In this document: piece after piece, positions 924 to 30,632 of the stretch
Numbering within the stretch: position 1 is the first letter of the stretch
How the letters are laid out: each line of letters begins with the position of its first letter
Notes under the pieces: generated by a model
What the model saw: only the letters and a program-made list of their open reading frames with translations
Databases searched by the model: none
What the model was told of the DNA's origin: nothing
Program-made: the position numbers and the translations under genes
Source of the DNA: a virus
Strand: one strand, 5' to 3'
Virus record (IMG/VR): IMGVR_UViG_3300031707_002920
Span: 21,904 to 85,903 of that record
Length of the DNA: 64,000 nucleotides

Positions 924-927
924 TCGA

Positions 928-4705: not shown

Positions 4706-4720
4706 CTATTTCAATATGCT

Positions 4721-4782: not shown

Positions 4783-4809
4783 TGCTATTGCTATTTCTAG
4801 TAAAATGAT

Positions 4810-6554: not shown

Positions 6555-6564
6555 TTAGATTAAT

Positions 6565-7122: not shown

Positions 7123-7139
7123 CTAAACAAGGAGGAGTC

Positions 7140-7355: not shown

Positions 7356-7357
7356 TT

Positions 7358-8023: not shown

Positions 8024-8024
8024 T

Positions 8025-8845: not shown

Positions 8846-8892
8846 CAATAATGTTGATTATTTAATTGATAATCACTTTAACACGATAGACC

Positions 8893-15765: not shown

Positions 15766-16890
15766 ATGAGAATTGGCTATTCAGCATGGGGATTTATAGG
15801 TGATGGACTCGTAGACTCTCCAGACGGTGGACGTTTAACAAGAGCATTGCTTATTGAACACTTACTTAAAGAAAACTACGACATTATGTGGTTACAAGAA
15901 AATCGTGATGTCGATTATCATAGCATGCCATTATTTAGGCTCTCAGTAAGTAAATCTTACAAAGATGAACAAAGACAAACGCTTTGTAAAATAAAATATG
16001 ATAATGGTTTTCCACAAATTGATGTATTATTCCTTGAATGGCGATGGAAAATACCGGGCAGGAATTGTGACGTTTCTATTGAAGATGCTAAATACACTCC
16101 AGATTATGATAGACAGACGCAATTACTATTACATTACATCAACATGTCAACTAAAATTATCATTTGGGATAAGGATGAAAAACTCACTTTTAATGACGAA
16201 CATTGGCTTGATCATCATAAGAAGCATCAATTTCAAGTCACAATATTGTCGCCTGCGATTTATCCTCCTAAGATAATCTTCGAACGAAAAACGCTATTGT
16301 TTCCGTGTCAGTTAAGTAAGATAAAGGGCACTAAAATAAACAAACGATACGAATATCTTATTGGTTATGTTGGTTCTCAGTATGAGCGCGATGACCAGAT
16401 CTATAAATATATCAATCCTTTTTCTTTTCAATGGGCTCAATTAACTAAACAACTGCAAGTGATATTTGTCGGCAATTGGTTAAAATATGATGATCAGGCT
16501 AAGAGAAATTTAGTCAATTTTCCGCATATTAAATTTGAAGATAGAATCTTACCAAAAGATATGGGAACTATTTATAGTAAATGTTTGGCTTCAGTCTTAT
16601 TATGCAAACAAAACTATGCACGGCATTGTCACATAACACAGAGGATTTATGAACTTGCAATGAACGGCGTGATTGCTATCGGCCTTAAAGAGCAAATAGA
16701 CATTGATAAATTTATTAATAAGTCACTCATAATTTCAGATGCTTATGATCTTGTACAAGTGATCGACATGCTGCGCAGGTCGTCAATTGATTTTCGACAG
16801 CAAATATTAGATGAGCATATCGAAAGATTAGAACCATTTGATATAAACAATGTCATGAACAAGTTTAGAGAAGTACTAAGCCATGCATAG
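15766..16890 (+). CDS. GT-B glycosyltransferase, candidate DNA base glycosyltransferase
   Basis: MRIGYSAWGF.GD...DSPDGG, LFLEWRW, IIWDKD, YVGSQYERD, QRIYE. Confidence 0.7.
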   Translation: MRIGYSAWGFIGDGLVDSPDGGRLTRALLIEHLLKENYDIMWLQENRDVDYHSMPLFRLSVSKSYKDEQRQTLCKIKYDNGFPQIDVLFLEWRWKIPGRNCDVSIEDAKYTPDYDRQTQLLLHYINMSTKIIIWDKDEKLTFNDEHWLDHHKKHQFQVTILSPAIYPPKIIFERKTLLFPCQLSKIKGTKINKRYEYLIGYVGSQYERDDQIYKYINPFSFQWAQLTKQLQVIFVGNWLKYDDQAKRNLVNFPHIKFEDRILPKDMGTIYSKCLASVLLCKQNYARHCHITQRIYELAMNGVIAIGLKEQIDIDKFINKSLIISDAYDLVQVIDMLRRSSIDFRQQILDEHIERLEPFDINNVMNKFREVLSHA

Positions 16891-18502
16891 ATTTGACCAA
16901 AAAAATGTGTCTGATTTCTTTCCGTATCCGACATATAGACAGTATCAATTAGAGACCATTAATAAAATTCAACAACATTTTGTTGATGGTGTTAAAGACA
17001 TTATTATAGAGATGCCTACTGGTTCTGGAAAATCGCCTGTAGCAATTGCATGTGGATTATGGTCAGAGAATTCTTATTGTTTAACTTCACAAAAAATCTT
17101 GCAAGATCAATATATTAAAGATTTCACTGAAGATTACAGGATTTCTGTGTTGAAAGGTCGCAGCAATTATGAGTGCACATTTTTGGGTGATCCTGCAATG
17201 TGTAACGAGTGCTATGAACCTGCCAGAAAGCAATGTTATAAAAACGGAACGTGCCTTTATCAGATTGCTAAGAAAAGAACAATTAATTCTATTATAGCGT
17301 TGATGAATTATTCATACTTTCTGAATGTGACAGATTGTGATCCTAATAAATCGTTCGGTAAGAAGAAATTGTTGATTTGTGACGAGTGTCACTCGCTTGA
17401 GGGCGAGCTTATGGGGCAGGTCGAGTTCATTTTATCAGAATTTATGTTTAAGCGATCAGGGTATCCTGTTGCTATTCCCACATATGAATCATTAGATCAA
17501 TATGAAGCGTGGATAAAAGAAAATATAGAACAAGTGCAAGCGATTTTAAAGAAAAAAAATGATGAGTTAGATAGTTTGAATAGACAGCGAGTGAGTCTTA
17601 GTCGTGAATCTTTTAATTTTAAAAAAATGTCAGGAGAGACGGCTGAACTAGTGTCGCAAGTTGAAGAAATTGATCGTCTTTATCGACGAATGAATACGTT
17701 TTTGAATACTATAGGTTTAGTTGAATGGGTGTTTACGGTCGAAAGAACTGAAAAATTAAAGATGAAGAAAGTGATTTTTAAACCATTGACGATTAATTTA
17801 TTTGCACCCGATTGTTTATTAAATTACGGTGAACAACGACTTTACATGTCAGCTACTATTTTAGATAAAAAGAGTTTTTGTCATAGTCTTGGTATCAATT
17901 GTGATGAAGCTGCTTTTATAAGAGTGCCATCAACGTTTCCTGCTAAAAATCGGAAGATATTTTTTACAAATTCTGGTTTTATGAACTTAGCGAATATCGA
18001 CGATACGTTACCAAATATTGTCAGAGACTTGAAAAAAGCACTGGCATATCATAAGTCTGAAAAAGCACTAGTGCATTGTCATTCATATAAGATTGCAAAT
18101 TACATACAAGAAAATTGTCATGACCATCGGTTGATTTTTCATAATTCAGAGAATCGTGAAAAGATGCTTCAAAAGTTTATGCAATCGACAGATCCTATGG
18201 TTTTAGTTTCGCCGTCTATGACTGAGGGTCTTGATCTTAAAGATGACTTAGCACGTTGGGAAATTATAGTCAAAGTACCGTATTTATATTTGGGTGATAA
18301 ACAAGTATCTAGAAGAATGGCAATTGATCCTGATTGGTACAATTGGCAAACATGCCTGACACTGGTTCAGAGTTACGGTCGCATTTTTAGATCAGAGACT
18401 GATTGGGGAACAGTATATGTATTTGATAGTGGAGCAAGAGGATTTATACAACGTAATGTAAGTATTTTACCACAATGGTTTATCGACGCTTGTCAATTTT
18501 AA
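16883..18502 (+). CDS. DinG/XPD-family SF2 helicase
   Basis: Q motif, MPTGSGKS, KGRSNY.C Cys cluster, DECH, SAT, EGLD, QSYGRIFR. Confidence 0.9.
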   Translation: MHRFDQKNVSDFFPYPTYRQYQLETINKIQQHFVDGVKDIIIEMPTGSGKSPVAIACGLWSENSYCLTSQKILQDQYIKDFTEDYRISVLKGRSNYECTFLGDPAMCNECYEPARKQCYKNGTCLYQIAKKRTINSIIALMNYSYFLNVTDCDPNKSFGKKKLLICDECHSLEGELMGQVEFILSEFMFKRSGYPVAIPTYESLDQYEAWIKENIEQVQAILKKKNDELDSLNRQRVSLSRESFNFKKMSGETAELVSQVEEIDRLYRRMNTFLNTIGLVEWVFTVERTEKLKMKKVIFKPLTINLFAPDCLLNYGEQRLYMSATILDKKSFCHSLGINCDEAAFIRVPSTFPAKNRKIFFTNSGFMNLANIDDTLPNIVRDLKKALAYHKSEKALVHCHSYKIANYIQENCHDHRLIFHNSENREKMLQKFMQSTDPMVLVSPSMTEGLDLKDDLARWEIIVKVPYLYLGDKQVSRRMAIDPDWYNWQTCLTLVQSYGRIFRSETDWGTVYVFDSGARGFIQRNVSILPQWFIDACQF

Positions 18503-18550
18503 GTAGAGCAGCTATATCAATCTACGCAAAGCAGGTTGATTATAAAAGTT

Positions 18551-18766
18551 ATGAGAACTACAATTGAAGTAGCTCCTGATAAACGAAGAATTTGGCGACA
18601 ATGGTGTAAGAAATTTAAATTAAGTAGTGTAAAGTTATTTGATAAATTAATTGAGAAGATCGAGCAACGACAACAACAAGAGTTTTATAATTCATTGCCA
18701 AGACCTATAAAATATGTTAAGCCATTGGAAAATAAAAGAATTAGGAAATTTGTATACAAAAAATAG
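18551..18766 (+). CDS. small basic protein, possibly ribbon-helix-helix-like (copy 1)
   Basis: MRTTIEV strand then helices; immediately upstream of attI-like site. Confidence 0.6.
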   Translation: MRTTIEVAPDKRRIWRQWCKKFKLSSVKLFDKLIEKIEQRQQQEFYNSLPRPIKYVKPLENKRIRKFVYKK

Positions 18767-18777
18767 GTTCATATAAT
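18750..18777 (+). promoter_or_regulatory. sigma70-type promoter (Pc-like) overlapping attI-like site
   Basis: TTGTAT-16 bp-TATAAT; predicted +1 near the GTT at 18783; repeated at 19753-19780. Confidence 0.6.
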
Positions 18778-18789
18778 AACTAGTTGCAC
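18771..18789 (+). other. attI-like recombination site 1
   Basis: ATATAAT-AACTA-GTTGCAC; no hairpin precedes this GTT, and GTTGCACG is complementary to CGTGCAAC at 18961 closing cassette 1. Confidence 0.75.
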
Positions 18790-18822: not shown

Positions 18823-19056
18823 TTGGAAACGAGAATTATTCGTAACGCCAGTTGTAAATGTAGCGATTGCATGGGACCGGAGCGGGGTATCTGCCCTCGT
18901 AAGGGTTTCCAAAATTCACGGAGCACTAAGGAGTCGCGGCCTACAGTCCGGCGAAACGCCCGTGCAACAGACAAAGTGCGCCATGTAGATGATGGCCGTG
19001 TCGTTCCAGTAGATGGGTATGGTCAGCACAGCCACCCCGATTTTTTTCACGATTGA
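18823..19056 (+). CDS. cassette ORF, hypothetical Cys-containing
   Basis: GGAGGTG RBS before TTG; ends inside attC loop. Confidence 0.55.
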   Translation: METRIIRNASCKCSDCMGPERGICPRKGFQNSRSTKESRPTVRRNARATDKVRHVDDGRVVPVDGYGQHSHPDFFHD

Positions 19057-19085
19057 TTACGGCGCACGTTTGTCAACCGTTGTTT
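18962..19085 (+). repeat. attC-like site
   Basis: AAC-A-GACAAA-GTGCGCC...GGCGCAC-G-TTTGTC-AACC-GTT. Confidence 0.85.
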
Positions 19086-19122
19086 GCAATTGTCAATTTC
19101 TCTTATATACTGAGGTGGCGCT

Positions 19123-19362
19123 ATGATGACAGAACGGTGCGGAAGGTGTGCGAATCTAAGTGGGTTATGTGCTATGGTCGGCTGTGGTGGCTTCGTCGAG
19201 AAAGCGCCACTGGAAGCTGTGGAAGAAATTGCCAACAGCACACAACAAACCAATGGCGCAGGGGCTGAAGCCACATTACCGCCCAGGTGCCTCATCACTG
19301 GTTGTTACGACGATGCAGAACCTACATCTGTGTTCTGTGCGTGGCATAATATAGGGCGGTAA
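19123..19362 (+). CDS. cassette ORF, Cys-rich hypothetical
   Basis: GAGG RBS; ORF track. Confidence 0.6.
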   Translation: MMTERCGRCANLSGLCAMVGCGGFVEKAPLEAVEEIANSTQQTNGAGAEATLPPRCLITGCYDDAEPTSVFCAWHNIGR

Positions 19363-19387
19363 CGTCGCCATTGGTCAAACGTTGTAA
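19240..19387 (+). repeat. attC-like site
   Basis: AAC-AA-ACCAATGGCG...CGCCATTGGT-CAAAC-GTT. Confidence 0.8.
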
Positions 19388-19477
19388 GAAATGCTGGCCG
19401 TTCTGAAATTATAGGGCGGCGGCAAAACCAAAACAAGGAGAAAACATGAAACGCATTATCGAGAAGTACGACCACCA
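19381..19477 (+). pseudogene. truncated copy of the cassette at 21274 (5' leader and first codons)
   Basis: Identical to 21274-21370, then fused to repeat copy 2. Confidence 0.9.
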
Positions 19478-19789
19478 ATGGTTTATCGACGCTTGTCAAT
19501 TTTAAGTAGAGCAGCTATATCAATCTACGCAAAGCAGGTTGATTATAAAAGTTATGAGAACTACAATTGAAGTAGCTCCTGATAAACGAAGAATTTGGCG
19601 ACAATGGTGTAAGAAATTTAAATTAAGTAGTGTAAAGTTATTTGATAAATTAATTGAGAAGATCGAGCAACGACAACAACAAGAGTTTTATAATTCATTG
19701 CCAAGACCTATAAAATATGTTAAGCCATTGGAAAATAAAAGAATTAGGAAATTTGTATACAAAAAATAGGTTCATATAATAACTAGTTG
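19476..19789 (+). repeat. 314-bp direct repeat copy 2 with attI-like site 2 (GTT at 19786)
   Basis: Identical to 18473-18786; followed by a different cassette (GTTGTCGG). Confidence 0.95.
19554..19769 (+). CDS. small basic protein (copy 2)
   Basis: Identical to 18551-18766. Confidence 0.6.
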   Translation: MRTTIEVAPDKRRIWRQWCKKFKLSSVKLFDKLIEKIEQRQQQEFYNSLPRPIKYVKPLENKRIRKFVYKK

Positions 19790-19828
19790 TCGGAAATTCC
19801 GCGCAGGTTTTATGATTGGAGGCGGCGC

Positions 19829-20059
19829 ATGAGAGATAGTGATTTCAAACGCAAATTGTTCTGGGAGTGCATCGACAATCTGGGATCGAAGGGGCGTAGC
19901 AGCGCCGCTAAACTGGCGGAACCTGCGCTCCACATCCCACAACAGGGCCAGCACAAAATTTGCCCTCAATGTGGTGGCAATCTTGTGGAGATGTATCAGG
20001 CTGATGTTTACATTTGCAATGATTGCGGTATCAAGGTTACGGGCAAACTTCGTGCGTAG
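19829..20059 (+). CDS. cassette ORF, Zn-ribbon hypothetical
   Basis: GGAGG RBS; CPQC..CNDC encoded in the attC loop. Confidence 0.65.
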   Translation: MRDSDFKRKLFWECIDNLGSKGRSSAAKLAEPALHIPQQGQHKICPQCGGNLVEMYQADVYICNDCGIKVTGKLRA

Positions 20060-20074
20060 CCCGAACCGTTGTAT
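19937..20074 (+). repeat. attC-like site
   Basis: AAC-A-GGGCCA-GCAC...GTGC-G-TAGCCC-GAACC-GTT. Confidence 0.8.
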
Positions 20075-20112
20075 GCAACCGGTCACGCGACCATATTGTA
20101 AAGGGGCGACAA

Positions 20113-20436
20113 ATGACAATCATCCAGGCGTTATCAAGCATTCGCGGTGAGTTGGAGGAAGCGGAGCGCAAGTTCCCCTCGTTTCCTACAGACCCGGTAC
20201 ACGCCGCCGCAATAGTGGTTGAGGAAGCTGGTGAGCTACAACAGGCAGCATTGCAGTTTACGTATGAAGGCGGCGGCTGGGCTGAGTTGCACAACGAGGC
20301 TGTGCAGGTTGGCGCGATGGCGCTCCGCTTTCTTTGTCACATAGATTCGATGAAGAGTCGTCCCTCCGAGCAGGTGGAGCGCGTGCCCGGCAGCATACAA
20401 CAGGGCCAGCACGAAACGGCGGCTGACAAGGGGTAG
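20113..20436 (+). CDS. cassette ORF, MazG-like nucleotide pyrophosphohydrolase
   Basis: HAAAIVVEEAGEL...EAVQVGAMALRFL. Confidence 0.7.
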   Translation: MTIIQALSSIRGELEEAERKFPSFPTDPVHAAAIVVEEAGELQQAALQFTYEGGGWAELHNEAVQVGAMALRFLCHIDSMKSRPSEQVERVPGSIQQGQHETAADKG

Positions 20437-20482
20437 GGGATTATAGGCCGCCGCATCGTGCGAGTGGCCCGGGACGTTGTAA
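20395..20482 (+). repeat. attC-like site
   Basis: AAC-A-GGGCCA-GCACGA...TCGTGC-GAG-TGGCCC-GGGAC-GTT. Confidence 0.85.
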
Positions 20483-20548
20483 GAAATTCGCCCCGCTTTG
20501 AGAATATTTAGGCGAGCGCGAAAACCAAAAACAAAAAAGGAGAAACAA

Positions 20549-20884
20549 ATGCAAGCAGGACCGGTATCGATATTTCAGTCCCCGAATATTGTAAGGGACC
20601 TTCGTGTCTTGCCCGAGTTTAAGACCGTTGCACAACAATTTCGAGATGATTTAGGGCACAAAATGGTGGAGCACAAAAAGAAAATCAAAACTGACGGTAA
20701 TAAACTGTGTGGATTTATTGTGTCTCCTGAGTACAAAGCTATGTTACTTACTTTTTGCCAGGACCTTGTTCAGCTACCTACTATTATGGGTGAGTTACCT
20801 ATGCTGTACGGGATGCCCATTGAAGATGGAGAGGTCTCAAATATCGCGTTCAAATTTGAAAAAGACGCGCTCGCAGGACACTAA
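20549..20884 (+). CDS. cassette ORF, hypothetical
   Basis: AAGGAG RBS. Confidence 0.7.
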   Translation: MQAGPVSIFQSPNIVRDLRVLPEFKTVAQQFRDDLGHKMVEHKKKIKTDGNKLCGFIVSPEYKAMLLTFCQDLVQLPTIMGELPMLYGMPIEDGEVSNIAFKFEKDALAGH

Positions 20885-20902
20885 GGAGGCGGGGCGAACA
20901 TC

Positions 20903-20995
20903 TTACAACACAGCAAGGGATGCCAGAAACGCAGGACATTAAGGATTGAATTTTATTATAGGCGTTTCCAGCACCCGTTGCTGAACGCGTTGGTT
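20903..20995 (+). repeat. attC-like site (86 bp identical to 21726-21811)
   Basis: AAC-A-CAGCAA-GGG...CCC-G-TTGCTG-AACGC-GTT. Confidence 0.85.
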
Positions 20996-21035
20996 GAAAT
21001 TCCAGTCGATTTATTTTATTGAAAGGTTGCGAATT

Positions 21036-21248
21036 ATGTTTGTTCCAATTTGGCTGCTTATCGTCTTATCGGGGTTTGGTTGCTGGGGCACACTTATATT
21101 CATCAATGCCATTCGCAACAGGAAATCTAAGGTGGTATCTCCTTCCGCATTCGCACAACAGGCAAAGTGTGCCATGCTTCCGTGTCTCGGCTATTTAGAA
21201 TCTGAGTGTGAAAATTGTAGCAACTACAATCTGTACCGTAAACCGTAG
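21036..21248 (+). CDS. cassette ORF, membrane-anchored Cys-rich hypothetical
   Basis: AAGG RBS; N-terminal TM helix. Confidence 0.6.
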   Translation: MFVPIWLLIVLSGFGCWGTLIFINAIRNRKSKVVSPSAFAQQAKCAMLPCLGYLESECENCSNYNLYRKP

Positions 21249-21280
21249 CGGCACGGCACACATTTGCCGAACCGTTGTAA
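21153..21280 (+). repeat. attC-like site
   Basis: AAC-A-GGCAAA-GTGTGCC...GGCACAC-A-TTTGCC-GAACC-GTT. Confidence 0.85.
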
Positions 21281-21338
21281 GAAATGCTGGCCGTTCTGAA
21301 ATTATAGGGCGGCGGCAAAACCAAAACAAGGAGAAAAC

Positions 21339-21689
21339 ATGAAACGCATTATCGAGAAGTACGACCACCAGTTTATCAAAGATGGTAAGCGCATTTTCTG
21401 TACCTATGTTACTGTGCCATTTTCAGAGTTGCCTGAAGACTGTGATTTTTCTGGATTGGATGTGTCTATTATCAACGTGCTGTATGATGACTGTCACATC
21501 GCTGTTACGGGGTTTGATAGCAATCAAAACGGTATCTCAGTAGAGATACCCCCTACGCTGAAATTTCTATTTTATAAGGCAAGGGAGCAAGGTCAAGCGG
21601 TGTGTGCTGAATTGCTGACGAAGCATAACTTTGAAACAAACTGCATCAAGTTCAAAAAGGATATAGGGTACAGTAACACGGTAGCATAA
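21339..21689 (+). CDS. cassette ORF, hypothetical
   Basis: AAGGAG RBS. Confidence 0.75.
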   Translation: MKRIIEKYDHQFIKDGKRIFCTYVTVPFSELPEDCDFSGLDVSIINVLYDDCHIAVTGFDSNQNGISVEIPPTLKFLFYKAREQGQAVCAELLTKHNFETNCIKFKKDIGYSNTVA

Positions 21690-21730
21690 GAGAGCCGCCG
21701 CCAAGACATTAGGGATACGGCCAGCACATC

Positions 21731-21821
21731 TTACAACACAGCAAGGGATGCCAGAAACGCAGGACATTAAGGATTGAATTTTATTATAGGCGTTTCCAGC
21801 ACCCGTTGCTGGGCGTTGGTG
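21731..21821 (+). repeat. attC-like site
   Basis: Same body as 20903-20995. Confidence 0.85.
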
Positions 21822-21847
21822 GAAATAAACTTTTCTTTGGAGGTTAT

Positions 21848-22114
21848 ATGTTTGCCGAATTTGACAAGGTGATTAGGTGCCTTGCGTTGGAGTTACCCGA
21901 GTCCGTACATGCCGATGTTGTGGCGAAGTACGGCAAACTGAAAGCTGAGGTGGAAAAGTTTACATCCACCAACAGCGCTATGGATGCAATAAACGCTTAC
22001 ATTAAGGAATATGATAGCAAGCTGATTACTACTCCCGATGAAAAATGTGCATTGGCGGTGTGTGAATTTACGGATAAGTATGCTAATATTTTTAGGCGTT
22101 TACTGCACCAGTAG
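21848..22114 (+). CDS. cassette ORF, hypothetical
   Basis: GGAGG RBS; C-terminal half encoded by attC. Confidence 0.7.
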   Translation: MFAEFDKVIRCLALELPESVHADVVAKYGKLKAEVEKFTSTNSAMDAINAYIKEYDSKLITTPDEKCALAVCEFTDKYANIFRRLLHQ

Positions 22115-22128
22115 CGCAGACGTTGGGT
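21967..22128 (+). repeat. attC-like site
   Basis: AAC-A-GCGCTA-TGG...CCA-G-TAGCGC-AGAC-GTT. Confidence 0.85.
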
Positions 22129-22165
22129 GCAATTCGCGCCCGACCATATGATAGGCGGTTTCGCT

Positions 22166-22453
22166 ATGAAGATATGTCGAAAGTGTAGTATCGTTTACGA
22201 GAATCGTACTTGCCCGCTGTGTAATCTGCGCAAGCACGATAATCTTGTCCACGACTTCATCGAGTCAAAGGGACGAAGTCTTGTTCGGGAGTTGGTAGCC
22301 TATTTGCAGCACCGCGAAACCGCAGCAGATAGCGGAGCGGGCGCGAACAGCACCCAACATTCGCAGCACAAAAGTTGCCCTACATTCAACCGAGATTGTC
22401 ATTTCTCTGTTGTCAAGATACAGTGTACGAATGCCGGAGATTGTCCATGTTAA
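22166..22453 (+). CDS. cassette ORF, Zn-ribbon hypothetical
   Basis: CRKC..CPLC. Confidence 0.65.
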   Translation: MKICRKCSIVYENRTCPLCNLRKHDNLVHDFIESKGRSLVRELVAYLQHRETAADSGAGANSTQHSQHKSCPTFNRDCHFSVVKIQCTNAGDCPC

Positions 22454-22489
22454 ACGGGCAACCTTCGTGCGGTGCGGTGAACGTTGGTG
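22352..22489 (+). repeat. attC-like site
   Basis: AAC...CGCA-GCAC..GTTGCCC / GGGCAAC..GTGC-G-GTGCG...GTT. Confidence 0.75.
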
Positions 22490-22533
22490 TAAATTTCGGT
22501 CGCTCTAAAACACGAATTATAGGAGGCGCAAAA

Positions 22534-22809
22534 ATGTCAGGAACGATTTATCATACGTGTTCGGTATGTGGAAGCGAAATGTATCCGAAGATTGGAGGGC
22601 GATCAAACGGCGACACCATAACAGAGTTTGTCATGGTGCCGTGTAAGATTTGCGCCTCTGAAAAAGAGGAATCCGCTCCCTCCGCATCCACCAACAGCGC
22701 TATGGTGTCATTGTGCTTAAAATGTAAATATACTTTTTCTTGTATAATGGCTGGTGAACACGTGCGAGAATCTTGTCCTACAAATGAGTTCGCACAACGG
22801 CACCAGTAG
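22534..22809 (+). CDS. cassette ORF, Zn-ribbon hypothetical
   Basis: AGGAGG RBS; CSVC..CKIC. Confidence 0.7.
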   Translation: MSGTIYHTCSVCGSEMYPKIGGRSNGDTITEFVMVPCKICASEKEESAPSASTNSAMVSLCLKCKYTFSCIMAGEHVRESCPTNEFAQRHQ

Positions 22810-22823
22810 CGCGGACGGTGGTG
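22689..22823 (+). repeat. attC-like site with mutated core (GGT)
   Basis: AAC-A-GCGCTA-TGG...CCA-G-TAGCGC-GGAC-GGT. Confidence 0.8.
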
Positions 22824-22850
22824 TAAATAAACCGCGCTTGGAGGTTATAG

Positions 22851-23087
22851 GTGGCCGCCGATGAAGTGCTTCGATTTATGATCCGATGGTTTGCGCGACA
22901 CGATACGCCGCCGACGGTTCGCCAGGTATGGAAAGCGGCCACGAAAGCAGCGGAGGCGCGGTTTACATCCACCAACAAAGCAAGTGCGCCATGCCCACAG
23001 TGTGTAGATTTTGGCGCTATTCCGCCGCTTGTCAACTATTGTAAAACCTGTGGCCGTAAGCTACATGAGCACGGCGCACGTTGCTGA
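22851..23087 (+). CDS. cassette ORF, hypothetical
   Basis: GGAGG RBS before GTG. Confidence 0.6.
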   Translation: MAADEVLRFMIRWFARHDTPPTVRQVWKAATKAAEARFTSTNKASAPCPQCVDFGAIPPLVNYCKTCGRKLHEHGARC

Positions 23088-23097
23088 ACCGTTGTAA
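22970..23097 (+). repeat. attC-like site
   Basis: AAC-A-AAGCAA-GTGCGCC...GGCGCAC-G-TTGCTG-AACC-GTT. Confidence 0.85.
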
Positions 23098-23147
23098 GAA
23101 ATGCTCACCATTTTTGAATTTATGGGTGGGCGCAAAAAGGAGACCTA

Positions 23148-23468
23148 ATGCAGAACGTTTACGATGTTTTAAAATACAGGTTGTCTTTTATCTATGTTGT
23201 GTTAGCCTACACCTATTTGGTGTTAGCCTACATTTTTTGTATCATCATTAGTCCTTTGGGATTATTTTTAATGCTTTTTGAAAAACCTAAAATATGTTGT
23301 GTATGTAATAAGCGTATTGGTAAAAAAGAAGCTTGGACAAGTTATATTCATAGACCTGCTCATTATTCGTGTGTAGAAAACAAATGGTCATACTGGTATC
23401 AATTTGGCCCTATGGATAATCCTGATTATTGGCGTTATTTAGGTAGGAGTGCGCCCACAGAACAATAA
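23148..23468 (+). CDS. cassette ORF, membrane protein with CxxC/HxxC
   Basis: AAGGAG RBS; long hydrophobic N-terminus. Confidence 0.7.
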   Translation: MQNVYDVLKYRLSFIYVVLAYTYLVLAYIFCIIISPLGLFLMLFEKPKICCVCNKRIGKKEAWTSYIHRPAHYSCVENKWSYWYQFGPMDNPDYWRYLGRSAPTEQ

Positions 23469-23486
23469 GGAAATGGTGAGCACATC

Positions 23487-23556
23487 TTACAACAAACAAA
23501 TGGTGCCGAAGACTAAATCGTGAGTACACGACTTCACCATTTGTTGGACGTTGTAC
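23487..23556 (+). repeat. attC-like site (short, 70 bp)
   Basis: AAC-A-AACAAATGGTG...CACCATTTGTT-GGAC-GTT. Confidence 0.85.
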
Positions 23557-23600
23557 GCAAGTTTGGCGGTTCTGAATTTGATAGGCCGCCGAGGAGAAAT

Positions 23601-23974
23601 ATGGCATACCTTCATTGTCACAAGTGCGGCTGGTCACAGGATGATTTTTGGTATTGGCGGTGGTCTGGCCTCAAACAGTTTTGGAGGTGGCGGCATATGC
23701 CATTTGGCTATAATCCCGTTTCTCTTATTCTCGAAGATTTTGCCGAATACTGGAAGCCGCGCATGATAGGAATGGACTGTGTTTGGGCGCGTGAAAATGG
23801 TTTTAAAAGTAGTAATATTTTTCTTGGCATATTATGCTTTGGTCAATGGGTCGTCATGCGCGGCGTGTATTTAGTCAACGGTGGTGGTTTGACGATCAGT
23901 TTAAACGGGATTATAAAAACAATAAGGCCAAATGTCCTTCGTGCAAGTCACCAGATGATTTTGATATAGACTAA
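23601..23974 (+). pseudogene. cassette ORF, Zn-ribbon protein with probable 1-nt frameshift near 23820
   Basis: MAYLHCHKCGWSQDDFW... continues in the shifted frame as FSWHIML...KCPSCKSPDDFDID*. Confidence 0.6.
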
Positions 23975-24011
23975 TCGGCGGCAGAAGAATATTGAAACCG
24001 CCAAACCAGAC

Positions 24012-24094
24012 GTACAACAGCCGCAGCTTGAAACGGCTTTACACTAATGATTATGTTTTTGTAGGCCGCATCAAGCGTGCGGCAAACGTTGTAG
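24012..24094 (+). repeat. attC-like site
   Basis: AAC-A-GCCGCA-GCTTGA...TCAAGC-G-TGCGGC-AAAC-GTT. Confidence 0.88.
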
Positions 24095-24143
24095 TCAATG
24101 CCGTGCCGAGTCTTTATTGTAGGTGCGGCCATAAGGAGCAAGT

Positions 24144-24371
24144 ATGTTTTCATGGATGCATCGTGGTAAAGTTGAACGACCTATGTCCGAATTTCATGCC
24201 GAGTATATGGCCACACAGAGAGCAAAAGAGGAGTCGGCACGTCACAGCCTACAACAGCTAAAGGCTGAAATTGCCGCTACTATGCTTCCAGCTATTGTGG
24301 CATTAAGTAAAGGTGATATGATTACAGTCGCTAAATGTATTGACGAACTGCGGCAACTATCAGCCGTTTAG
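24144..24371 (+). CDS. cassette ORF ending QQLKAEIA...LRQLSAV
   Basis: AAGGAG RBS; stop TAG within attC right arm. Confidence 0.65.
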   Translation: MFSWMHRGKVERPMSEFHAEYMATQRAKEESARHSLQQLKAEIAATMLPAIVALSKGDMITVAKCIDELRQLSAV

Positions 24372-24383
24372 CGAACGTTGGTT
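24249..24383 (+). repeat. attC-like site
   Basis: AAC-A-GCTAAA-GGCTGA...TCAGCC-G-TTTAGC-GAAC-GTT. Confidence 0.88.
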
Positions 24384-24420
24384 GAAATTCCAGTCATGCT
24401 TTTTATGTTTGGAGGCGAAC

Positions 24421-24639
24421 ATGCTGTACTTTATCATAGGATGTCTAATAATCGGGTTGTTTATCTCGTTTTCAATAGGTTGGTGGTGTGGCGAACGGCA
24501 TGTTCGCAGAAACACTATGGTAGGCATTCCTTCCACATCAACCAACAGCAAAAGTACGCCATGTAAATGCACCTCAGTGCCGTTGGTAATATCTGAGAAG
24601 TGTAGATGTCGTATCTGTGGTCGAGTGTGGGTTCAGTAA
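24421..24639 (+). CDS. cassette ORF, membrane-anchored Cys-rich hypothetical
   Basis: GGAGG RBS; TM helix. Confidence 0.65.
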   Translation: MLYFIIGCLIIGLFISFSIGWWCGERHVRRNTMVGIPSTSTNSKSTPCKCTSVPLVISEKCRCRICGRVWVQ

Positions 24640-24667
24640 CACGGCGTACATTTTGCGGACGTTGTAA
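24540..24667 (+). repeat. attC-like site
   Basis: AAC-A-GCAAAA-GTACGCC...GGCGTAC-A-TTTTGC-GGAC-GTT. Confidence 0.85.
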
Positions 24668-24725
24668 GAAATGCGGTTGGCTCTGAAAATTATAAGCCGC
24701 CGCTAAAATCAAAACAAGGTATCAC

Positions 24726-25121
24726 ATGAAATTATCATCCTGCTCTCAAAAATTATATGGTAAACCTTTTTCAGATCTCACAGACTCTGAAAAAATAACA
24801 GTTAGAAAAGAAACTGCAAAATTAACTGTAGAAGAAGAACTCGAAAAACAAACCAAACGCGAACAAGAGTGGCATGACAGAATCGAGGATCCTGGACAAT
24901 GGTTCTGCCCCCGATGCGGTCATAAACTAGAACCGGTAAGCAAGGACAATGAAGACTGGGGAGATTTTTGTAGCGGATACCATGAGGAGCACGGCACTTT
25001 CTGGTTTCTATGCTCTAACAAAGACTGCACTTACAGTGAGGCTCCTCTTGTCGTCCATCATCCTGTTTATGGATGGCAATGCAGATCAGGAGATAGTTGG
25101 GCTATTGGTTACGTCAAATAA
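24726..25121 (+). CDS. cassette ORF, Zn-ribbon hypothetical
   Basis: CPRC..CSNKDC. Confidence 0.75.
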   Translation: MKLSSCSQKLYGKPFSDLTDSEKITVRKETAKLTVEEELEKQTKREQEWHDRIEDPGQWFCPRCGHKLEPVSKDNEDWGDFCSGYHEEHGTFWFLCSNKDCTYSEAPLVVHHPVYGWQCRSGDSWAIGYVK

Positions 25122-25162
25122 AGGCAGCGGCGGCGGGAAAGTAAGGAAGCCAACCGCACATC

Positions 25163-25235
25163 TTACAACAAATGCATGGCGGGGAGTACCCGCAAATTTG
25201 GAGTACCAAACTTCGCCATGCATCGGACGTTGTAG
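25163..25235 (+). repeat. attC-like site (near-identical to 26485-26557)
   Basis: AAC-AA-ATGCATGGCG...CGCCATGCAT-CGGAC-GTT. Confidence 0.85.
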
Positions 25236-25266
25236 TCAATTGTCGAGCGCAAAGAAAGGAAATTAT

Positions 25267-25497
25267 ATGCCCGCCGAAGAATTGCTTCCGTGTCGTAAAT
25301 GTGGGGCTCCTGCTGCGCCGATAGCTCCACCGAAAGATGGCTGGTCGTGTTTAATACACTGTTCAAAGTTTTGCGGTTATCATGAGCATGAAGGAACGGT
25401 AGAGAAAACGGTTCTTGCGTGGAATCGGCGGGCGGACACTAAGGAGTGCGCTCGCCAACAGCCTACAACAACCGTATGCCAAAATGTCGACGAGTAA
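25267..25497 (+). CDS. cassette ORF, Lar-like (restriction alleviation) Zn-ribbon protein
   Basis: ELLPCRKCG..A...IHC..C....A WNRR pattern. Confidence 0.65.
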   Translation: MPAEELLPCRKCGAPAAPIAPPKDGWSCLIHCSKFCGYHEHEGTVEKTVLAWNRRADTKECARQQPTTTVCQNVDE

Positions 25498-25739
25498 CCG
25501 ACGTGACTATGAACGCTCAGATTTTCAGTTCCCTGAGAAAACACGGAAAAGATATGTTGGATGTCTCCTGCTTAGCTAAAGAATTAAAAAAGGGTCTTAT
25601 GGGGACGATGTGGGGTGCTCGCGTGTGGGTTCATAGAGATGCTACAGAAATTAGGTGTTACGGAGAAAATAGTGTTGAGTTTGAAAAGCAATTCCCTTTT
25701 CTCAAGGAGTCTAAAAGAGTTCTCAAAATTAAAGACTAA
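25476..25739 (+). CDS. hypothetical protein (possible capsid-protein-like fragment)
   Basis: ORF track; MNAQ..SLRK.G.D.LD...ELKKGLMGTMWGA. Confidence 0.5.
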   Translation: MPKCRRVTDVTMNAQIFSSLRKHGKDMLDVSCLAKELKKGLMGTMWGARVWVHRDATEIRCYGENSVEFEKQFPFLKESKRVLKIKD

Positions 25740-25770
25740 AAGCCACAAACGAAGAGAGAGGAGGGATGTG

Positions 25771-26160
25771 ATGAGCCGGTCGTACTTTACAACACAGAAA
25801 ATTTCACGTAAGATATTTCCTAATAAAGTGGGAGATAGCATCCTACTTAAAAATGGAGAAAAACTAACTATTGGATCAGATAGAAAGGATATATCTGGAT
25901 CATTCTATCTGACGGATGGGATAGCAAGTGTGTGGTTGTATTTCGATAAGGGCCTTCTCTCTATGTACGATATAAACAATACATTTGCATGGAATGGTAC
26001 TGGAGAGCCATTGCTGAAAAAAATCCGATCATACGTGCGCAAACCAAAAGCAAAAGAGGCACGTCCTGTGCCTAAGAGCCGCCACAAGGACACTATGGTA
26101 GCGCGAAAAATAGCAGCCAACAGCCACAGCCCAAAACAGTGGAAGTTGACTAAGGACTAA
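25771..26160 (+). CDS. cassette ORF, hypothetical
   Basis: GGAGG RBS. Confidence 0.65.
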   Translation: MSRSYFTTQKISRKIFPNKVGDSILLKNGEKLTIGSDRKDISGSFYLTDGIASVWLYFDKGLLSMYDINNTFAWNGTGEPLLKKIRSYVRKPKAKEARPVPKSRHKDTMVARKIAANSHSPKQWKLTKD

Positions 26161-26204
26161 TTTTATTATAGTCCGCTGCATCGGGCGTGCGGCGGACGTT
26201 GTAC
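26115..26204 (+). repeat. attC-like site
   Basis: AAC-A-GCCACA-GCCC...GGGC-G-TGCGGC-GGAC-GTT. Confidence 0.8.
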
Positions 26205-26257
26205 AAAATTTAACCGCGTCTTGGATTTATAGCCGGGGCGCAAAACAGGAGAAAAAC

Positions 26258-26479
26258 ATGAAAGACACAGAGTTGAGAATTATCAGCGACGGTACTGTTG
26301 CTGGCACACAGGTGGTGGATTCTAAAGGTAACAGGGTCAAATTAGTACAGAAAATAAAATGGGAGTTATCCCTATCGTCTGGTATATCTAAAGTTACATT
26401 GGAAATTGCCAAAACACCTATTGATGTCATCGCCAAAAAAGCAAGAGCGCCCCGGAGGAACATTAAGGAACGCGGTTAA
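26258..26479 (+). CDS. cassette ORF, hypothetical
   Basis: AGGAG RBS. Confidence 0.75.
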   Translation: MKDTELRIISDGTVAGTQVVDSKGNRVKLVQKIKWELSLSSGISKVTLEIAKTPIDVIAKKARAPRRNIKERG

Positions 26480-26484
26480 ACTTC

Positions 26485-26557
26485 GTACAACAAATGCATG
26501 GCGGGGAGTACCCCCAAATTTGGAGTACCAAACTTCGCCATGCATCAAACGTTGTGC
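26485..26557 (+). repeat. attC-like site
   Basis: Same body as 25163-25235 with one internal difference. Confidence 0.85.
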
Positions 26558-26589
26558 GAAATAACCGGCGAACCATATTGGAGGCGCGA

Positions 26590-26919
26590 ATGATTCACAA
26601 ACACGATCTGCGTACCGCTATCAGCGATCTCGGGCAGGCTCTGGAGCATGTCGAGCACTATAGTGGTAGGCCGGAAGTTTTTTGCCTTAAGCAGCTTTTG
26701 GTCAATCCACTTTCGTACGCGCAGAACAATGGGAGTCGCCGGTTACATCGCACAACAGCGAAAGTGCGCAATGTCAACACAATTTTCAAGAGTCTATTTG
26801 TATTCGCTGTGGTAAAAAATTGTGATGCCACAGCGCACGTTTCGCGAGACGTTGGTTGCAATGGTCTTCTTAAATTTATTATAGGCGGCGCAAATGGCAA
26901 TTCCATTTTTCAAATGTAG
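26590..26919 (+). CDS. cassette ORF, hypothetical (3' end uncertain, reads across attC)
   Basis: GGAGG RBS before ATG 26590. Confidence 0.45.
   Translation: MIHKHDLRTAISDLGQALEHVEHYSGRPEVFCLKQLLVNPLSYAQNNGSRRLHRTTAKVRNVNTIFKSLFVFAVVKNCDATAHVSRDVGCNGLLKFIIGGANGNSIFQM
26750..26857 (+). repeat. attC-like site
   Basis: AAC-A-GCGAAA-GTGCGC...GCGCAC-G-TTTCGC-GAGAC-GTT. Confidence 0.85.
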
Positions 26920-27130
26920 TAAACATGGTGTTGTGAAGTTCAGGGTTATTCACGAGTGCGAGGTATGCGCCGCTGAAAACCGCTGTACTCAGCCCACAGA
27001 CAACCAACATACGCAGCTTGCAATTGCAGCTCTTCGCGGCGCGTTGTCTCGGTTGCCCGTCAATCTTGGCATGGTAGATCAGATATTGGTTGCCTTCGAG
27101 GAAGAGCTGCAACAGCAAGCGAGTGCGTAA
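26894..27130 (+). CDS. cassette ORF; C-terminus shared with 63336-63701
   Basis: QHTQLAIAALRGALSRLP...EELQQQASA. Confidence 0.65.
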   Translation: MAIPFFKCSKHGVVKFRVIHECEVCAAENRCTQPTDNQHTQLAIAALRGALSRLPVNLGMVDQILVAFEEELQQQASA

Positions 27131-27140
27131 AACGTTGGCC
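27002..27140 (+). repeat. attC-like site
   Basis: AAC-A-TACGCA-GCTTGC...GCAAGC-GAG-TGCGTA-AAAC-GTT. Confidence 0.85.
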
Positions 27141-27260
27141 GAAACTCCACGGCCAAAACGAATATAGATAGGCGGCATTATGCGGCCAAAGCGCCGCACT
27201 GCGCATAATCGCGGGCGTTGTACGCAATGGGCTTCTTAAATTTATTGGAGGTGGTTGCTT

Positions 27261-27497
27261 ATGTCAAAATGCAATAGTTGCGGTCGTGAGCCTCTTGAAT
27301 ATGTAACAAGGTGTGTGCGTTGCGGAGCGGCGCAACCACTGGAAAGCAGCGGTACTCAGCCCACAGACGTACAACAGCTAAAGGCCGAAATCGCCATGTG
27401 TGCGGCGTTGCTTGAGCCTTTATTCGGGGCGACTGAGGAACAAAGTAAGGTCATTACCGATGTCACGCAAAGACTGTGGCGACTATCAGCCGTTTAG
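27261..27497 (+). CDS. cassette ORF, Zn-ribbon, ends QQLKAEIA...LWRLSAV
   Basis: GGAGG RBS. Confidence 0.65.
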   Translation: MSKCNSCGREPLEYVTRCVRCGAAQPLESSGTQPTDVQQLKAEIAMCAALLEPLFGATEEQSKVITDVTQRLWRLSAV

Positions 27498-27509
27498 CAA
27501 ACGTTGTAT
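27369..27509 (+). repeat. attC-like site
   Basis: AAC-A-GCTAAA-GGCCGA...TCAGCC-G-TTTAGC-AAAC-GTT. Confidence 0.85.
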
Positions 27510-27541
27510 GCCATTTACATTTTCTCGGAGGTTATAGGCAC

Positions 27542-27763
27542 ATGGCTATATGCGGTACGAATCAATGCGTAGAGTGCGAGCTGTATATACACTGCATACG
27601 ACATGTGCGCGACGTAGTTCCGCCATGTGCAAAAAATGTAAACCAGCTAAAAGCCGAAATTCGCGCATTGCTAAACGACAATTGTGAGTTTTACGAAAGT
27701 AACGCTTCGTTAAGTAACATTAGCGCGTTTTTGTTCAAATTGCGCGAACTATCGGCTGTTTAG
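27542..27763 (+). CDS. cassette ORF, Cys-rich, ends QLKAEI...LRELSAV
   Basis: GGAGG RBS. Confidence 0.65.
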   Translation: MAICGTNQCVECELYIHCIRHVRDVVPPCAKNVNQLKAEIRALLNDNCEFYESNASLSNISAFLFKLRELSAV

Positions 27764-27776
27764 CAAATCGTTGTGC
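27637..27776 (+). repeat. attC-like site with eroded inverse core
   Basis: GCTAAA-AGCCGA...TCGGCT-G-TTTAGC-AAATC-GTT. Confidence 0.75.
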
Positions 27777-28813: not shown

Positions 28814-29089
28814 ATGAAAGTTTTGCCGTTGTGTGATACGTCTGGACACGATATGGAGATTGTTGCTGAAACAGACTTTGAGGCGGAGTGGCTTAAATGT
28901 CATTTCAAGGTTTGGCGCGGTGTAGATGGATTTGTTGATGATACAACAGTAGGTGGTGTTCGCCTCAAAGTCAAGAGCGCATGGTGGGATTGCACTAGAG
29001 CACTGGCGGAAGCGCACACACAGCCTACAACAGCGCCATGCGGTACGGGGCAGAAGCCCCAAATTGCCGAAGCGTCAACTTCCGCATAG
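28814..29089 (+). CDS. last cassette ORF, hypothetical
   Basis: GGAGG RBS; GCCTACAAC inverse core at 29023, right core degenerate (AAACTTGG). Confidence 0.65.
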   Translation: MKVLPLCDTSGHDMEIVAETDFEAEWLKCHFKVWRGVDGFVDDTTVGGVRLKVKSAWWDCTRALAEAHTQPTTAPCGTGQKPQIAEASTSA

Positions 29090-29372
29090 CGCAAACTTGG
29101 AAGAAAAATGAAACTTACATCGTTTGCGTAACTCAGGCCGGTTCGTGATGCAGCGATGCGTGTCGTTGAGGCTCAAACAGCGCCTCAATGCCGCTATTGT
29201 TTAAGCTTCATTGATGATTCTCATAAATTTATAGTTTTAAACTGTATATAGTAGCTAAAAATGTGTACAATATAAACTAATATCCCACTCAGGTATGTCG
29301 TATTTAAATACTCTGTTTGTGGTAGTTTTTAATGTAATCACATGAATATGAAAAACAAAACAGAAGAAGAAA

Positions 29373-30632
29373 ATGAAACTCGTACACAAATTTAACTATA
29401 GAAAGAAAAACATTGAGCTGGATACTTTGTGTAGAGTGTCTAATGATATCTATAATCAAGCGAATTATACCATAAAACAGGAGCTAAATAAATCTGGTAA
29501 ATGGATACGATATAACGAGCTAGACCAAATAATGAAAGTCACAGAGAATCTAGAGCACGAGATAAATTATAGGAAACTAAAAGCACAGGCGGCTCAGCAA
29601 ACATTAAGGATGCTGGATAAAAACTGGAACTCTTATTTCAGAGCACTCAAACCGTTTAAAAAGGATCCCAATAAATTTACCGGTCAACCGAGACCTCCTA
29701 GATTTCTAAAACGTGGGAGCATAAATTTACTAGTTTATACTAATCAATGCTCCCAAATAAAGGATAATAAAATAGTATTAGAAGAAAACATATCCATAGG
29801 AATACCCGAGGTAGATAAAGATTTTAGTAAATTTAATCAGATAAGAATTTTGCCGAGAAAAAATAGATATGAGATAGAGATAGTCTATAGCGTAGATTGT
29901 GCCAATTTAGAACTAGATCAGAACAATTATTTATCAATAGATTTGGGAGTCAACAATTTAGCGGCTTGTATTTCTAAAGATAAATCTTTTCTTTTAGACG
30001 GCAAACCTATTAAGTCTATAAATCAGTTTTTTAACAAAACTCTTGCAAAGAATAGATCTTTCAGAGACAAAAAAGGAGGCGGAGCATGCCGTAGAAAATC
30101 AAACGAACTAAGTAATTACAGAGAGTTTTTTATCAGGGATCAGTTTCATAAAATGACGAGGCTTCTTGTAAATTATTGCATAGTGAAAAACATTGGTACT
30201 ATAGTTTGTGGGTATAATAAGCGATGGAAAGACTCCATCGATATTGGTAAAGTTTCGAATCAGAAGTTTACCAACATACCTCATAAACTATTTTTGAAGA
30301 TGTTAAAATACAAATGTAATTTAGTAGGCATTGTGTTGATTTGTAAAGAGGAGTCATACACATCTAAGTGCGATGGACTAGCATTAGAGCCCGTAAAAAA
30401 GCACAAAGTTTACTTGGGCAAGAGGATTAAGAGAGGGCTTTTTCAGAGCTCTGTTGGAAAGCTTATCAATGCTGATATTGGTGGGTCTTTAAATACACTT
30501 AGAAAAGTAATCGGTGATGGTTCCTTTATCAGGGATCTAATCGATAGTGTGGTTCTGTTTAACCCAGTGAAGATAAGGTTTGCGGATTTAAGCTGCAAGC
30601 AGACTCTTTCAAATTTTTTGGTTAGATGTTAA
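29373..30632 (+). CDS. tnpB: TnpB (IS200/IS605, IS1341-type, no tnpA)
   Basis: YNQANY, SIDLGVNNL, EESYTSK, RIKRGLF, INADIGGSLN. Confidence 0.9.
   Translation: MKLVHKFNYRKKNIELDTLCRVSNDIYNQANYTIKQELNKSGKWIRYNELDQIMKVTENLEHEINYRKLKAQAAQQTLRMLDKNWNSYFRALKPFKKDPNKFTGQPRPPRFLKRGSINLLVYTNQCSQIKDNKIVLEENISIGIPEVDKDFSKFNQIRILPRKNRYEIEIVYSVDCANLELDQNNYLSIDLGVNNLAACISKDKSFLLDGKPIKSINQFFNKTLAKNRSFRDKKGGGACRRKSNELSNYREFFIRDQFHKMTRLLVNYCIVKNIGTIVCGYNKRWKDSIDIGKVSNQKFTNIPHKLFLKMLKYKCNLVGIVLICKEESYTSKCDGLALEPVKKHKVYLGKRIKRGLFQSSVGKLINADIGGSLNTLRKVIGDGSFIRDLIDSVVLFNPVKIRFADLSCKQTLSNFLVRC

Follow-up and report, generated by a model that had tools for sequence, protein, structure and literature searches.

A 64,000-nucleotide stretch of DNA (the window), which is the last 64 kb of the 85.9-kb IMG/VR virus record IMGVR_UViG_3300031707_002920, carries an array of about 25 co-oriented gene cassettes on its plus strand (positions 18783 to ~29096). 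The array lies between a helicase gene (16883 to 18502, plus strand) and a gene for a TnpB protein of the OrfB_IS605 or Cas12f-like type (29373 to 30632, plus strand). Each cassette extends from a GTTG to a hairpin site that ends just 5' of the next GTTG, and it is these hairpins, candidate attC-type recombination sites of an integron-like system, that concern us here. The zone between the helicase and TnpB genes has a G+C content of 43 to 59%, compared with 32% for the phage, and individual cassettes span the same range except for one that contains a low-G+C 314-bp duplicate (33%). Reading of the sequence, combined with a listing of every GTTG, gave about 25 junctions of the form C-GTTG-N4-(A/C)AAT. 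An earlier, sequence-only reading had placed the sites between 18962 and 27776; sites are indeed present there, but the array proper extends from 18783 to ~29096.

When sites were folded with AAC and GTT forced to pair and the best stem was sought beside each junction, most took the form of AAC, one unpaired position, 6 bp, and 6 to 7 bp, returning from the terminal structure through 6 to 7 bp, 1 unpaired base, 6 bp, and 4 to 5 unpaired nucleotides to GTT. The resulting plan, CAAC-A-6 bp-6 bp...6 bp-(G/A bulge)-6 bp-RRAC-GTTG, has covarying stems and is shared by the 23 sites of the window and, with those of 14 sediment-metagenome contigs included, by 76 distinct sites. Described on the top strand, a site consists of a short R box (CAAC/GTTG), an asymmetric internal loop of 1 x 4 to 5 nt (A opposite RRAC), a 6-bp helix, a single bulged purine on the 3' arm, and another 6-bp helix, capped by a terminal structure that is variable and often protein-coding. 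In alignment A2, made with MAFFT with the structure assigned by hand, 87.6% of cells were paired, versus 28 to 40% with slid partners, and 87 cells showed double changes, versus 13 to 26. The corresponding values for all 76 distinct sites (alignment A3) were 92.6% versus 28 to 38%, and 318 versus 34 to 64. A covariance model built from A2 (R1) recovered every window site at 40 to 76 bits and about 55 further sites in the 14 metagenome contigs, all of them on the same strand as the cassette genes. A strict template that demanded a perfect stem (CAAC-N-6 bp ... 6 bp-N3-6-GTTG), when run over both strands of the 85.9-kb record, matched 13 times on the plus strand, always within the array, and twice on the minus strand, once outside the array, with a chance expectation of ~0.34 matches over both strands. 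The hairpin geometry is far beyond chance.

These folds, the stem covariation, and the strict template confirm the plan that the sequence-only reading had put forward, with its AAC-A-6-bp stem and its bulge on the right arm, and the details that it gave also agree with the counts. It had described bulges that were mostly G, with A in two sites and GAG in two; among the 23 window sites, 14 have a G bulge, 2 an A bulge (21157 and 24544), and 2 a GAG bulge (20399 and 27006), and the other 5 (19244, 23491, 25167, 26489, and 29029) have a mismatch in its place or no bulge at all. Over the 76 distinct sites, G is the bulged base in 38 and A in 22, GAG is bulged in 4, and 10 lack a bulge. The proposed asymmetric spacer of 1 versus 4 to 5 nucleotides (nt) is equally evident, the left spacer being A in 76/76 sites and the right spacer 4 nt long in 52 sites and 5 nt long in 18, with the consensus RRAC and C as its last base. 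As for the claim that the cores are GTTG(T/G) rather than strict GTTRRRY, just 1 of 68 sites fits the consensus GTTRRRY or RYYYAAC, and R' is GTTGT in 39, GTTGG in 20, and GTTGC in 5.

Individual sites, all on the plus strand, vary around this plan. Site 1 (18962 to 19085; 69.1 bits with R1) reads AAC-A-GACAAA-GTGCGCC...GGCGCAC-G-TTTGTC-AACC-GTTG, site 2 (19240 to 19387; 62.9 bits) has a 10-bp stem and no bulge, site 3 (19937 to 20074; 76.1 bits) has a mismatched L stem with the extra base on the right arm, and site 4 (20395 to 20482; 61.5 bits) has a right-arm GAG bulge. Sites 5 (20903 to 20995; G bulge) and 7 (21731 to 21821) carry the same hairpin, here called hairpin B, which in the second instance ends a cassette that we call cassette A (21274 to 21814). 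An A bulge is found in site 6 (21153 to 21280) and site 15 (24540 to 24667). Sites with a G bulge also include site 8 (21967 to 22128), through which an open reading frame (ORF) continues; site 10 (22689 to 22822; 57.3 bits), with a degenerate R' of GGTG at 22816; sites 11 (22970 to 23097), 13 (24012 to 24094), and 14 (24249 to 24383); site 17 (26115 to 26204; 69.4 bits), with a single L-stem mismatch; sites 19 (26750 to 26857; 75.5 bits) and 21 (27369 to 27509); and site 22 (27637 to 27776), where the left spacer is CA. Site 9 (22352 to 22489; 45.7 bits) has an L stem of 4 bp and its extra base on the right arm. Neither the short site 12 (23487 to 23556) nor site 16 (25163 to 25235) has a bulge, and site 18 (26485 to 26557) is a near-copy of site 16. 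Site 20 (27002 to 27140), with a GAG bulge, is followed by an 83-nt unit (27134 to 27216, plus strand) that has an atypical hairpin, neither ORF nor CAAC box, and a GGGC end before the GTTG at 27217; it is probably a remnant. In the last site, site 23 (29025 to 29102; 40.7 bits), a C.A mismatch replaces the bulge and R' is CTTG at 29096.

The arms of site 14 encode QQLKAEI...LSAV*, and the same site type occurs in L204, a locus described below. This C-terminal peptide is shared by otherwise unrelated cassette ORFs, at 24144 to 24371, 27255 to 27497, and 27542 to 27763 of the window and at 8858 to 9091 of L204, because the ORF runs through the whole hairpin site. Across cassettes the CAACA box falls in different reading frames, which argues that conservation acts at the DNA level.

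Where a cassette begins and ends can be read from cassette A, which is present, at 92 to 99% identity, in 15 sediment-sample loci of JGI metagenome contigs. In every one of these loci, similarity starts at the GTTG at 21274 (within CGTTG, the finest placement that the comparison allows). Eight different sequences precede the cassette, comprising seven different hairpins and one recombinase gene, and in seven further contexts the ORF is followed by the same downstream hairpin and then by different cassettes. The encoded protein (21339 to 21689) has relatives in metagenomes only, with no family member among the viral contigs searched. A second line of evidence comes from the cassette ends: the first ~19 nt after GTTG are complementary to the stretch 5' of the cassette's own CAAC, with a match of ~0.65 per position, compared with ~0.2 against the neighboring cassette. 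Most cassettes between 20476 and 26850 also conserve a 2 x 2 (AA/CA) mismatch within this pairing, GTTG-N4-AAAT ... ACAT-N4-CAAC. Because the two ends pair with each other, the R helix of a closed cassette would greatly exceed in length that of the array's junction sites, and this complementarity fits a unit predicted to be able to close into a circle. The borders of cassette A in many contexts and the pairing of each cassette with itself together define the cassette as GTTG...ORF...CAAC-hairpin, with the coding strand as the top strand. An inverted array, in which the plus strand would be the classical bottom strand, was ruled out, since the cassette borders and ORFs fix the orientation. CRISPR repeats were likewise ruled out, as the stems differ and covary and unit lengths vary.

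In contigs from public runs, cassettes occurred in other orders and contexts: one joint, for example, led from 27222 back to 26197, and in runs X1 and X3 the end of another site precedes the first cassette. As assemblies, these contigs speak to cassette order and context, not to cut sites or strand. Summed cassette depth in these runs reached up to 6x that of the phage backbone, probably reflecting other genomes. Arrays were found in genomes of both 32% and 51 to 53% G+C. The same site class occurs at 1 to 2340 of L116, a phage-like contig of 32% G+C in which the array is followed by a deaminase-like gene and a tRNA, and at 9411 to 12470 of L126, a contig of 53% G+C with phage-like genes (DUF5131 and AAA_24). 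The arrays in L116 and L126 indicate that the cassettes are common to very different genomes of these sediments.

The asymmetry of the sites is the reverse of that known from class 1 integrons. Aligning arm against arm, we counted 244 extra nucleotides on the right arm versus 29 on the left, with the right arm richer in 62 of 68 sites. The extras of three class 1 attC sites, those of aadA1 from R100, aac(6')-Ib-cr, and aac(6')-IIc, lie on the left (R''/L'') arm, one after 3 bp and another after a further 6 bp, with spacers of 5 versus 5 to 6 nt. These three layouts agree with Nivina et al. 2016 (PMC5027507), and the left-arm geometry that the sequence-only reading had called established is borne out on real sites. 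In the canonical layout, the extrahelical bases of the L'' arm (the 3' arm of the bottom strand) are a G and, 6 bp on, a T. Since the cassette borders lie at the right-hand GTTG, the mirroring is real and not an artifact of strand naming. To judge from the sequences, the geometry is mirrored relative to both the ORF and the presumed crossover.

Covariance models separated the two classes in both directions. Run unfiltered on five class 1 integron loci, R1 gave at most 13.8 bits, with a few marginal attC matches on the opposite strand. For the reverse comparison we used R2, a home-made class 1 attC model, distinct from the attC model of IntegronFinder and narrow in that it has three seed sites, strict RYYYAAC/GTTRRRY patterns having located few class 1 attC sites. 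R2 scored its seeds, and a further copy of one of them, at 66 to 83 bits, the catB3 and cmlA4 sites outside the seeds at 36 to 51 bits, and the wrong strand at 15 to 18 bits. This narrow model had no match in the array or in L123, a recombinase-bearing locus, and a single 11.3-bit match in locus L121. R1 and R2 each fail on the other's site class, which bears out, for this home-made three-seed model, the suggestion that attC models may miss such sites.

No match to PF00589, and no tyrosine recombinase, was found on the phage record. Among the 18 loci scanned (the phage, two related phage contigs, and the 15 metagenome loci), we saw no IntI, and the tyrosine-recombinase profile found nothing in the phage, its two relatives, or 14 of the 15 metagenome loci. 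The exception, L123, is a contig of 51% G+C with type I-E cas genes upstream and a gene for a 293-residue tyrosine recombinase whose stop codon overlaps the first GTTG (...GGGTAGTTGTAAG...), after which come eight sites of the class found in the phage. The final cassette visible in this array (12487 to 12853) encodes a DNA methyltransferase-like protein with a DPPY motif. The L123 recombinase retains the catalytic R, K, HxxR, H, and Y residues, and its best solved relative is the archaeal (Pyrococcus) XerA (PDB 4A8E), with which it aligns from end to end, large gaps being absent. Where VchIntIA has a stretch of 73 residues, the L123 protein has 31, and two blocks present in the R100 IntI1, of 31 and 10 residues, are missing from it. 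It scored 171.6 bits against the integron integrase profile TIGR02249 (cutoff, 265) and 161 to 178 bits against the NCBIfam XerA, XerC, and XerD profiles (cutoffs, 220 to 335). Its close relatives (P0009 to P0014; 59 to 83% identity) come from metagenomes only. A single-sequence AlphaFold model of the protein, with a predicted local distance difference test score (pLDDT) of 45.8, was too poor to use.

The link between sites and recombinases was retested by searching an alignment of the recombinase family against viral contigs and running R1 on the 80 loci returned. L204 encodes a 266-residue recombinase whose double stop is followed after 6 nt by the first GTTG, with the sequence GTTGTGTGGAAAT and then seven sites scoring up to 65 bits, and L191 encodes a 275-residue recombinase followed by three sites, the first cassette starting ~45 nt past the stop. 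With L123, this makes three strong platforms, L123, L204, and L191, in all of which the recombinase gene is co-oriented with an array that begins 0 to 45 nt past its stop codon. Weaker R1 matches in L206, L198, and L201 to L203 occur immediately upstream of similar recombinase genes and on the opposite strand, an arrangement that corresponds to the divergent layout of classical integrons. Every recombinase beside a strong array or a weaker match is without the IntI-specific inserts of 31 and 10 residues. The L123, L204, and L191 enzymes are only 34 to 42% identical to one another, so the association would be old. By this comparison of sequences, the distinct recombinase specificity that had been proposed from the window is supported.

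At its left end, the array adjoins an attI-like junction region (18473 to 18786, plus strand) that comprises the 3' end of the helicase gene, a 76-residue basic ORF, and ...TATAATAACTA|GTTG, so that the boundary between backbone and first cassette is 18782/18783. An identical 314-bp second copy (19476 to 19789, plus strand) is followed by a different first cassette; this copy interrupts a copy of cassette A (19381 to 19477) at a short shared CCA(C)CAATGG. The phage left junction is A|GTTG, as it is in L123, L204, L191, and L126, and the inter-cassette junctions are C|GTTG. Its sequence, CATATAATAACTA|GTTG, resembles the CGTATAATAAGAA|GTTG of L204. A sigma-70-like -10 box, TATAAT, stands 7 nt 5' of the first GTTG in both the phage (18740 to 18786) and L204 (7745 to 7768), with TTGTAT 16 nt upstream of it in the phage, and these elements may represent a promoter reading into the cassettes. 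With the helicase gene as an anchor, two related phage contigs were found (helicases 82% and 68% identical; one contig is 416 kb) that have ordinary low-G+C genes at the array position and no sites of the array type. The array is thus an insertion particular to the phage under study. Viral contigs scanned with the 14-nt pattern CACATCTTACAACA gave single chance matches only.

In integrons, the flipped-out bases lie on the arm opposite the one that is cut. For the sites described here, it is the minus (non-coding) strand that gives the stabler fold, by an average of 1.85 kcal/mol with DNA parameters and in 60 of 68 sites; much the same advantage, 2.1 kcal/mol, is reported for the bottom strand of classical attC sites (PMC5027507). 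Among mispaired cells of the plus strand, A.C or C.A cells, which are G.T on the minus strand, outnumber G.T or T.G cells by 33 to 17. The folded bottom (non-coding) strand is most likely the substrate. If this strand is used and is cut at CAA|C as in integrons, the bulge (a C on that strand) and the 4- to 5-nt loop would both lie on the cut arm, beside the crossover.

These data support a model in which the sites are attC-type hairpins of folded single strands, belonging to an integron-like cassette system that is related to classical integrons and differs from them, a reading to which we assign a probability of roughly 0.7. According to this model, a small Xer-like recombinase would excise and insert cassettes by exchange at GTTG, acting on the folded bottom strand, and strand and orientation, for which IntI reads flipped-out bases, would be set by the asymmetric loop and the bulge. 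These extras would lie on the arm beside the crossover, whereas those of classical attC sites lie on the far arm. The phage array would have been built through site-specific insertion at the attI-like site, and the enzyme would have acted in trans, coming from the host, a co-resident element, or the unsequenced part of the phage. It is somewhat probable, beyond this, that a separate integron-like lineage exists in which insert-less Xer-like recombinases read mirror attC sites, and that it is common to sediment bacteria and very large phages. For the window itself, our best reading of the sequence is an integron-like variant with a distinct recombinase lineage, whose array would have been imported into the phage without its enzyme.

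Several observations weigh against this model. The absence of a tyrosine recombinase from the record makes activity within this phage only putative, and the phage array could have been acquired whole. Where the array returns to low-G+C phage DNA at site 23, the G of GTTG is missing. The 3- to 5-nt spacer between hairpin B and the next GTTG varies by copy (AACGC, GGC, GGGAC, AGAC, and TAAAC in a comparison of window positions 20975 to 20993 and 21805 to 21819 with L121, L122, L124, L125, L123, and L128) and tracks neither the upstream nor the downstream cassette, a pattern that a simple fixed crossover leaves unexplained. Adjacency of sites and recombinases rests on three strong cases, and 26 reference-genome loci with more distant homologues of the recombinase have no R1 sites. 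Both the folding strand and the position of the cut are inferred. Finally, IntI enzymes are promiscuous, and a conventional IntI may act on these sites.

This last point leads to the most serious alternative, which we nevertheless consider unlikely: that the hairpins are ordinary attC sites within natural variation, served by a conventional IntI elsewhere in the host, and that the array is a plain phage cluster of attC sites lacking integrases (CALIN). The AAC/GTT triplets, hairpins of variable length, co-oriented cassettes, and stabler bottom strand are all classical features, and phage CALINs have been published, in which IntI1 recombined 5 of 6 tested phage sites (PMC9892861). A CALIN is defined by two or more attC sites that share a strand and are separated by less than 4 kb, with no integrase in the vicinity; the array, with 23 sites and no PF00589 match on the record, has such a layout, a count in which attC status by a standard model plays no part. 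Ordinary sites would not, however, be expected to carry extras on the opposite arm in 62 of 68 cases, to have spacers of 1 versus 4 to 5 nt, to fit GTTRRRY in just 1 of 68, or to escape the home-made class 1 model entirely, and every adjoining recombinase is without the IntI inserts, with no IntI in the 18 loci scanned.

Explanations that dispense with tyrosine recombination account for less of the evidence. RNA-level hairpins, acting as terminators, processing sites, or translational controls, would place all sites on the coding-strand side of co-transcribed genes, as is observed, and the overlap of ORF ends with many sites and the -10 box at the array start would suit them. We give this idea very little weight, as one cassette occurs in at least 8 unrelated contexts with its borders at GTTG, arrays span genomes of 32% and 51 to 53% G+C and in three cases adjoin a recombinase gene, the plus strand (the RNA sense) is the weaker fold with fewer G.U-type than A.C cells, and no U-run follows the hairpins. 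The ends of IS200/IS605 elements are also single-strand hairpins, and TnpB genes are found at 29373 to 30632 and 34341 to 35366 of the window and at 6434 to 7522 of L123, near its platform. The first of these proteins is no recombinase for the sites. Non-autonomous elements of the IS200/IS605 type, or others with hairpin ends, that an HUH (Y1) transposase would mobilize are the least credible of the three alternatives: no TnpA was seen among the scanned ORFs of the window or the loci (no search dedicated to TnpA was made), the units stand strictly head to tail with one composite site each instead of separate left and right hairpins, the two ends of a unit pair with each other in a way that fits a circular cassette, and the second TnpB gene has no adjoining array.

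Compared with classical attC sites (class 1 aadA1/aadA7 and the VCR repeats of Vibrio), the attC-like sites of the array share an imperfect hairpin framed by AAC...GTT, R and L helices split by a spacer, bulges, and a variable terminal structure (55 to 183 nt), with one site per cassette at the ORF 3' end, a border at the right-hand GTT, and a stabler bottom strand. They differ in having extras on the R'/L' arm instead of R''/L'', spacers of 1 versus 4 to 5 nt instead of 5 to 6 versus 5 to 6 nt, 6 bp instead of 3 bp between spacer and bulge, GTTG(T/G) cores with a conserved AAAT/CAAT further on in place of GTTRRRY, ~19-nt complementarity of cassette ends, and an associated recombinase without the IntI inserts. 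Xer systems likewise use a simple Xer-type tyrosine recombinase, XerA (PDB 4A8E) being the best solved relative, and they offer a precedent for a single-stranded hairpin substrate in the integration of CTX phage at dif. In contrast to dif, the sites are attC-like and arrayed one per cassette, with no 28-bp dif-like site evident; of such a site (two 11-bp arms and a 6-bp center), the junctions have only the 6-bp palindrome AACGTT.

Among described integrons, the inverted integron-integrase group (e.g., Treponema; PMC4889954) resembles L123, L204, and L191 in having a co-oriented upstream recombinase gene with its 3' end at the insertion site, but its enzymes are IntI proteins with the IntI-specific region that the three platform recombinases lack. 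Cury et al. 2016 (PMC4889954) define IntI by this specific region near patch III (intI_Cterm) and judged region-less recombinases near attC sites not to be integron integrases. Parts of integrons and small clusters of attC sites were described from phages by Qi et al. 2023 (PMC9892861), who used the standard model and IntI1 recombination. Their phage CALINs likewise consist of a cassette array in a phage without an integrase on the record, but they have few sites, which the standard attC model detects and IntI1 recombines, whereas the array here has about 25 cassettes of a class that R2 misses. The full-text literature searched yielded no account of attC sites with mirrored geometry or of arrays that insert-less recombinases serve.

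The IntI-specific insert contacts the flipped-out bases of attC and is held to enable recombination of cassettes as single strands. Here the sites have the reverse asymmetry and the recombinases lack the insert, and even so the cassettes clearly travel among genomes, phages and higher-G+C genomes included. If the proposed model is correct, the IntI-specific domain would be dispensable for cassette recombination on folded single-stranded DNA, and the choice of strand and orientation in integrons would become testable by a natural contrast. Standard integron finders would overlook a whole class of arrays, so that surveys would need new models for both site and enzyme. Large phages would have a known route to accessory genes, dozens of small ones being stocked in this case, and a further recombination system that is structure specific would become available to synthetic biology.

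The contig closes with another cassette-like locus (63240 to 64000), which has a junction of ...TGTAAAC|GTTGTTTGTAAT at 63277. Within it, 63485 to 63627 is a diverged copy of the cassette end at 27006 to 27134, with a degenerate R' (19.2 bits with R1). Assembly may have stopped at this point because of repeated cassettes. The record as a whole, estimated to be ~43% complete, has every large ORF on a single strand and encodes a primase, helicases, a 5'-3' exonuclease, and thymidylate synthase as replication genes. At the start of the window, positions 156 to 9304 hold 12 clustered tRNA genes together with a gene for transfer-messenger RNA (tmRNA), and the tag peptide encoded by the tmRNA is 28 residues long.

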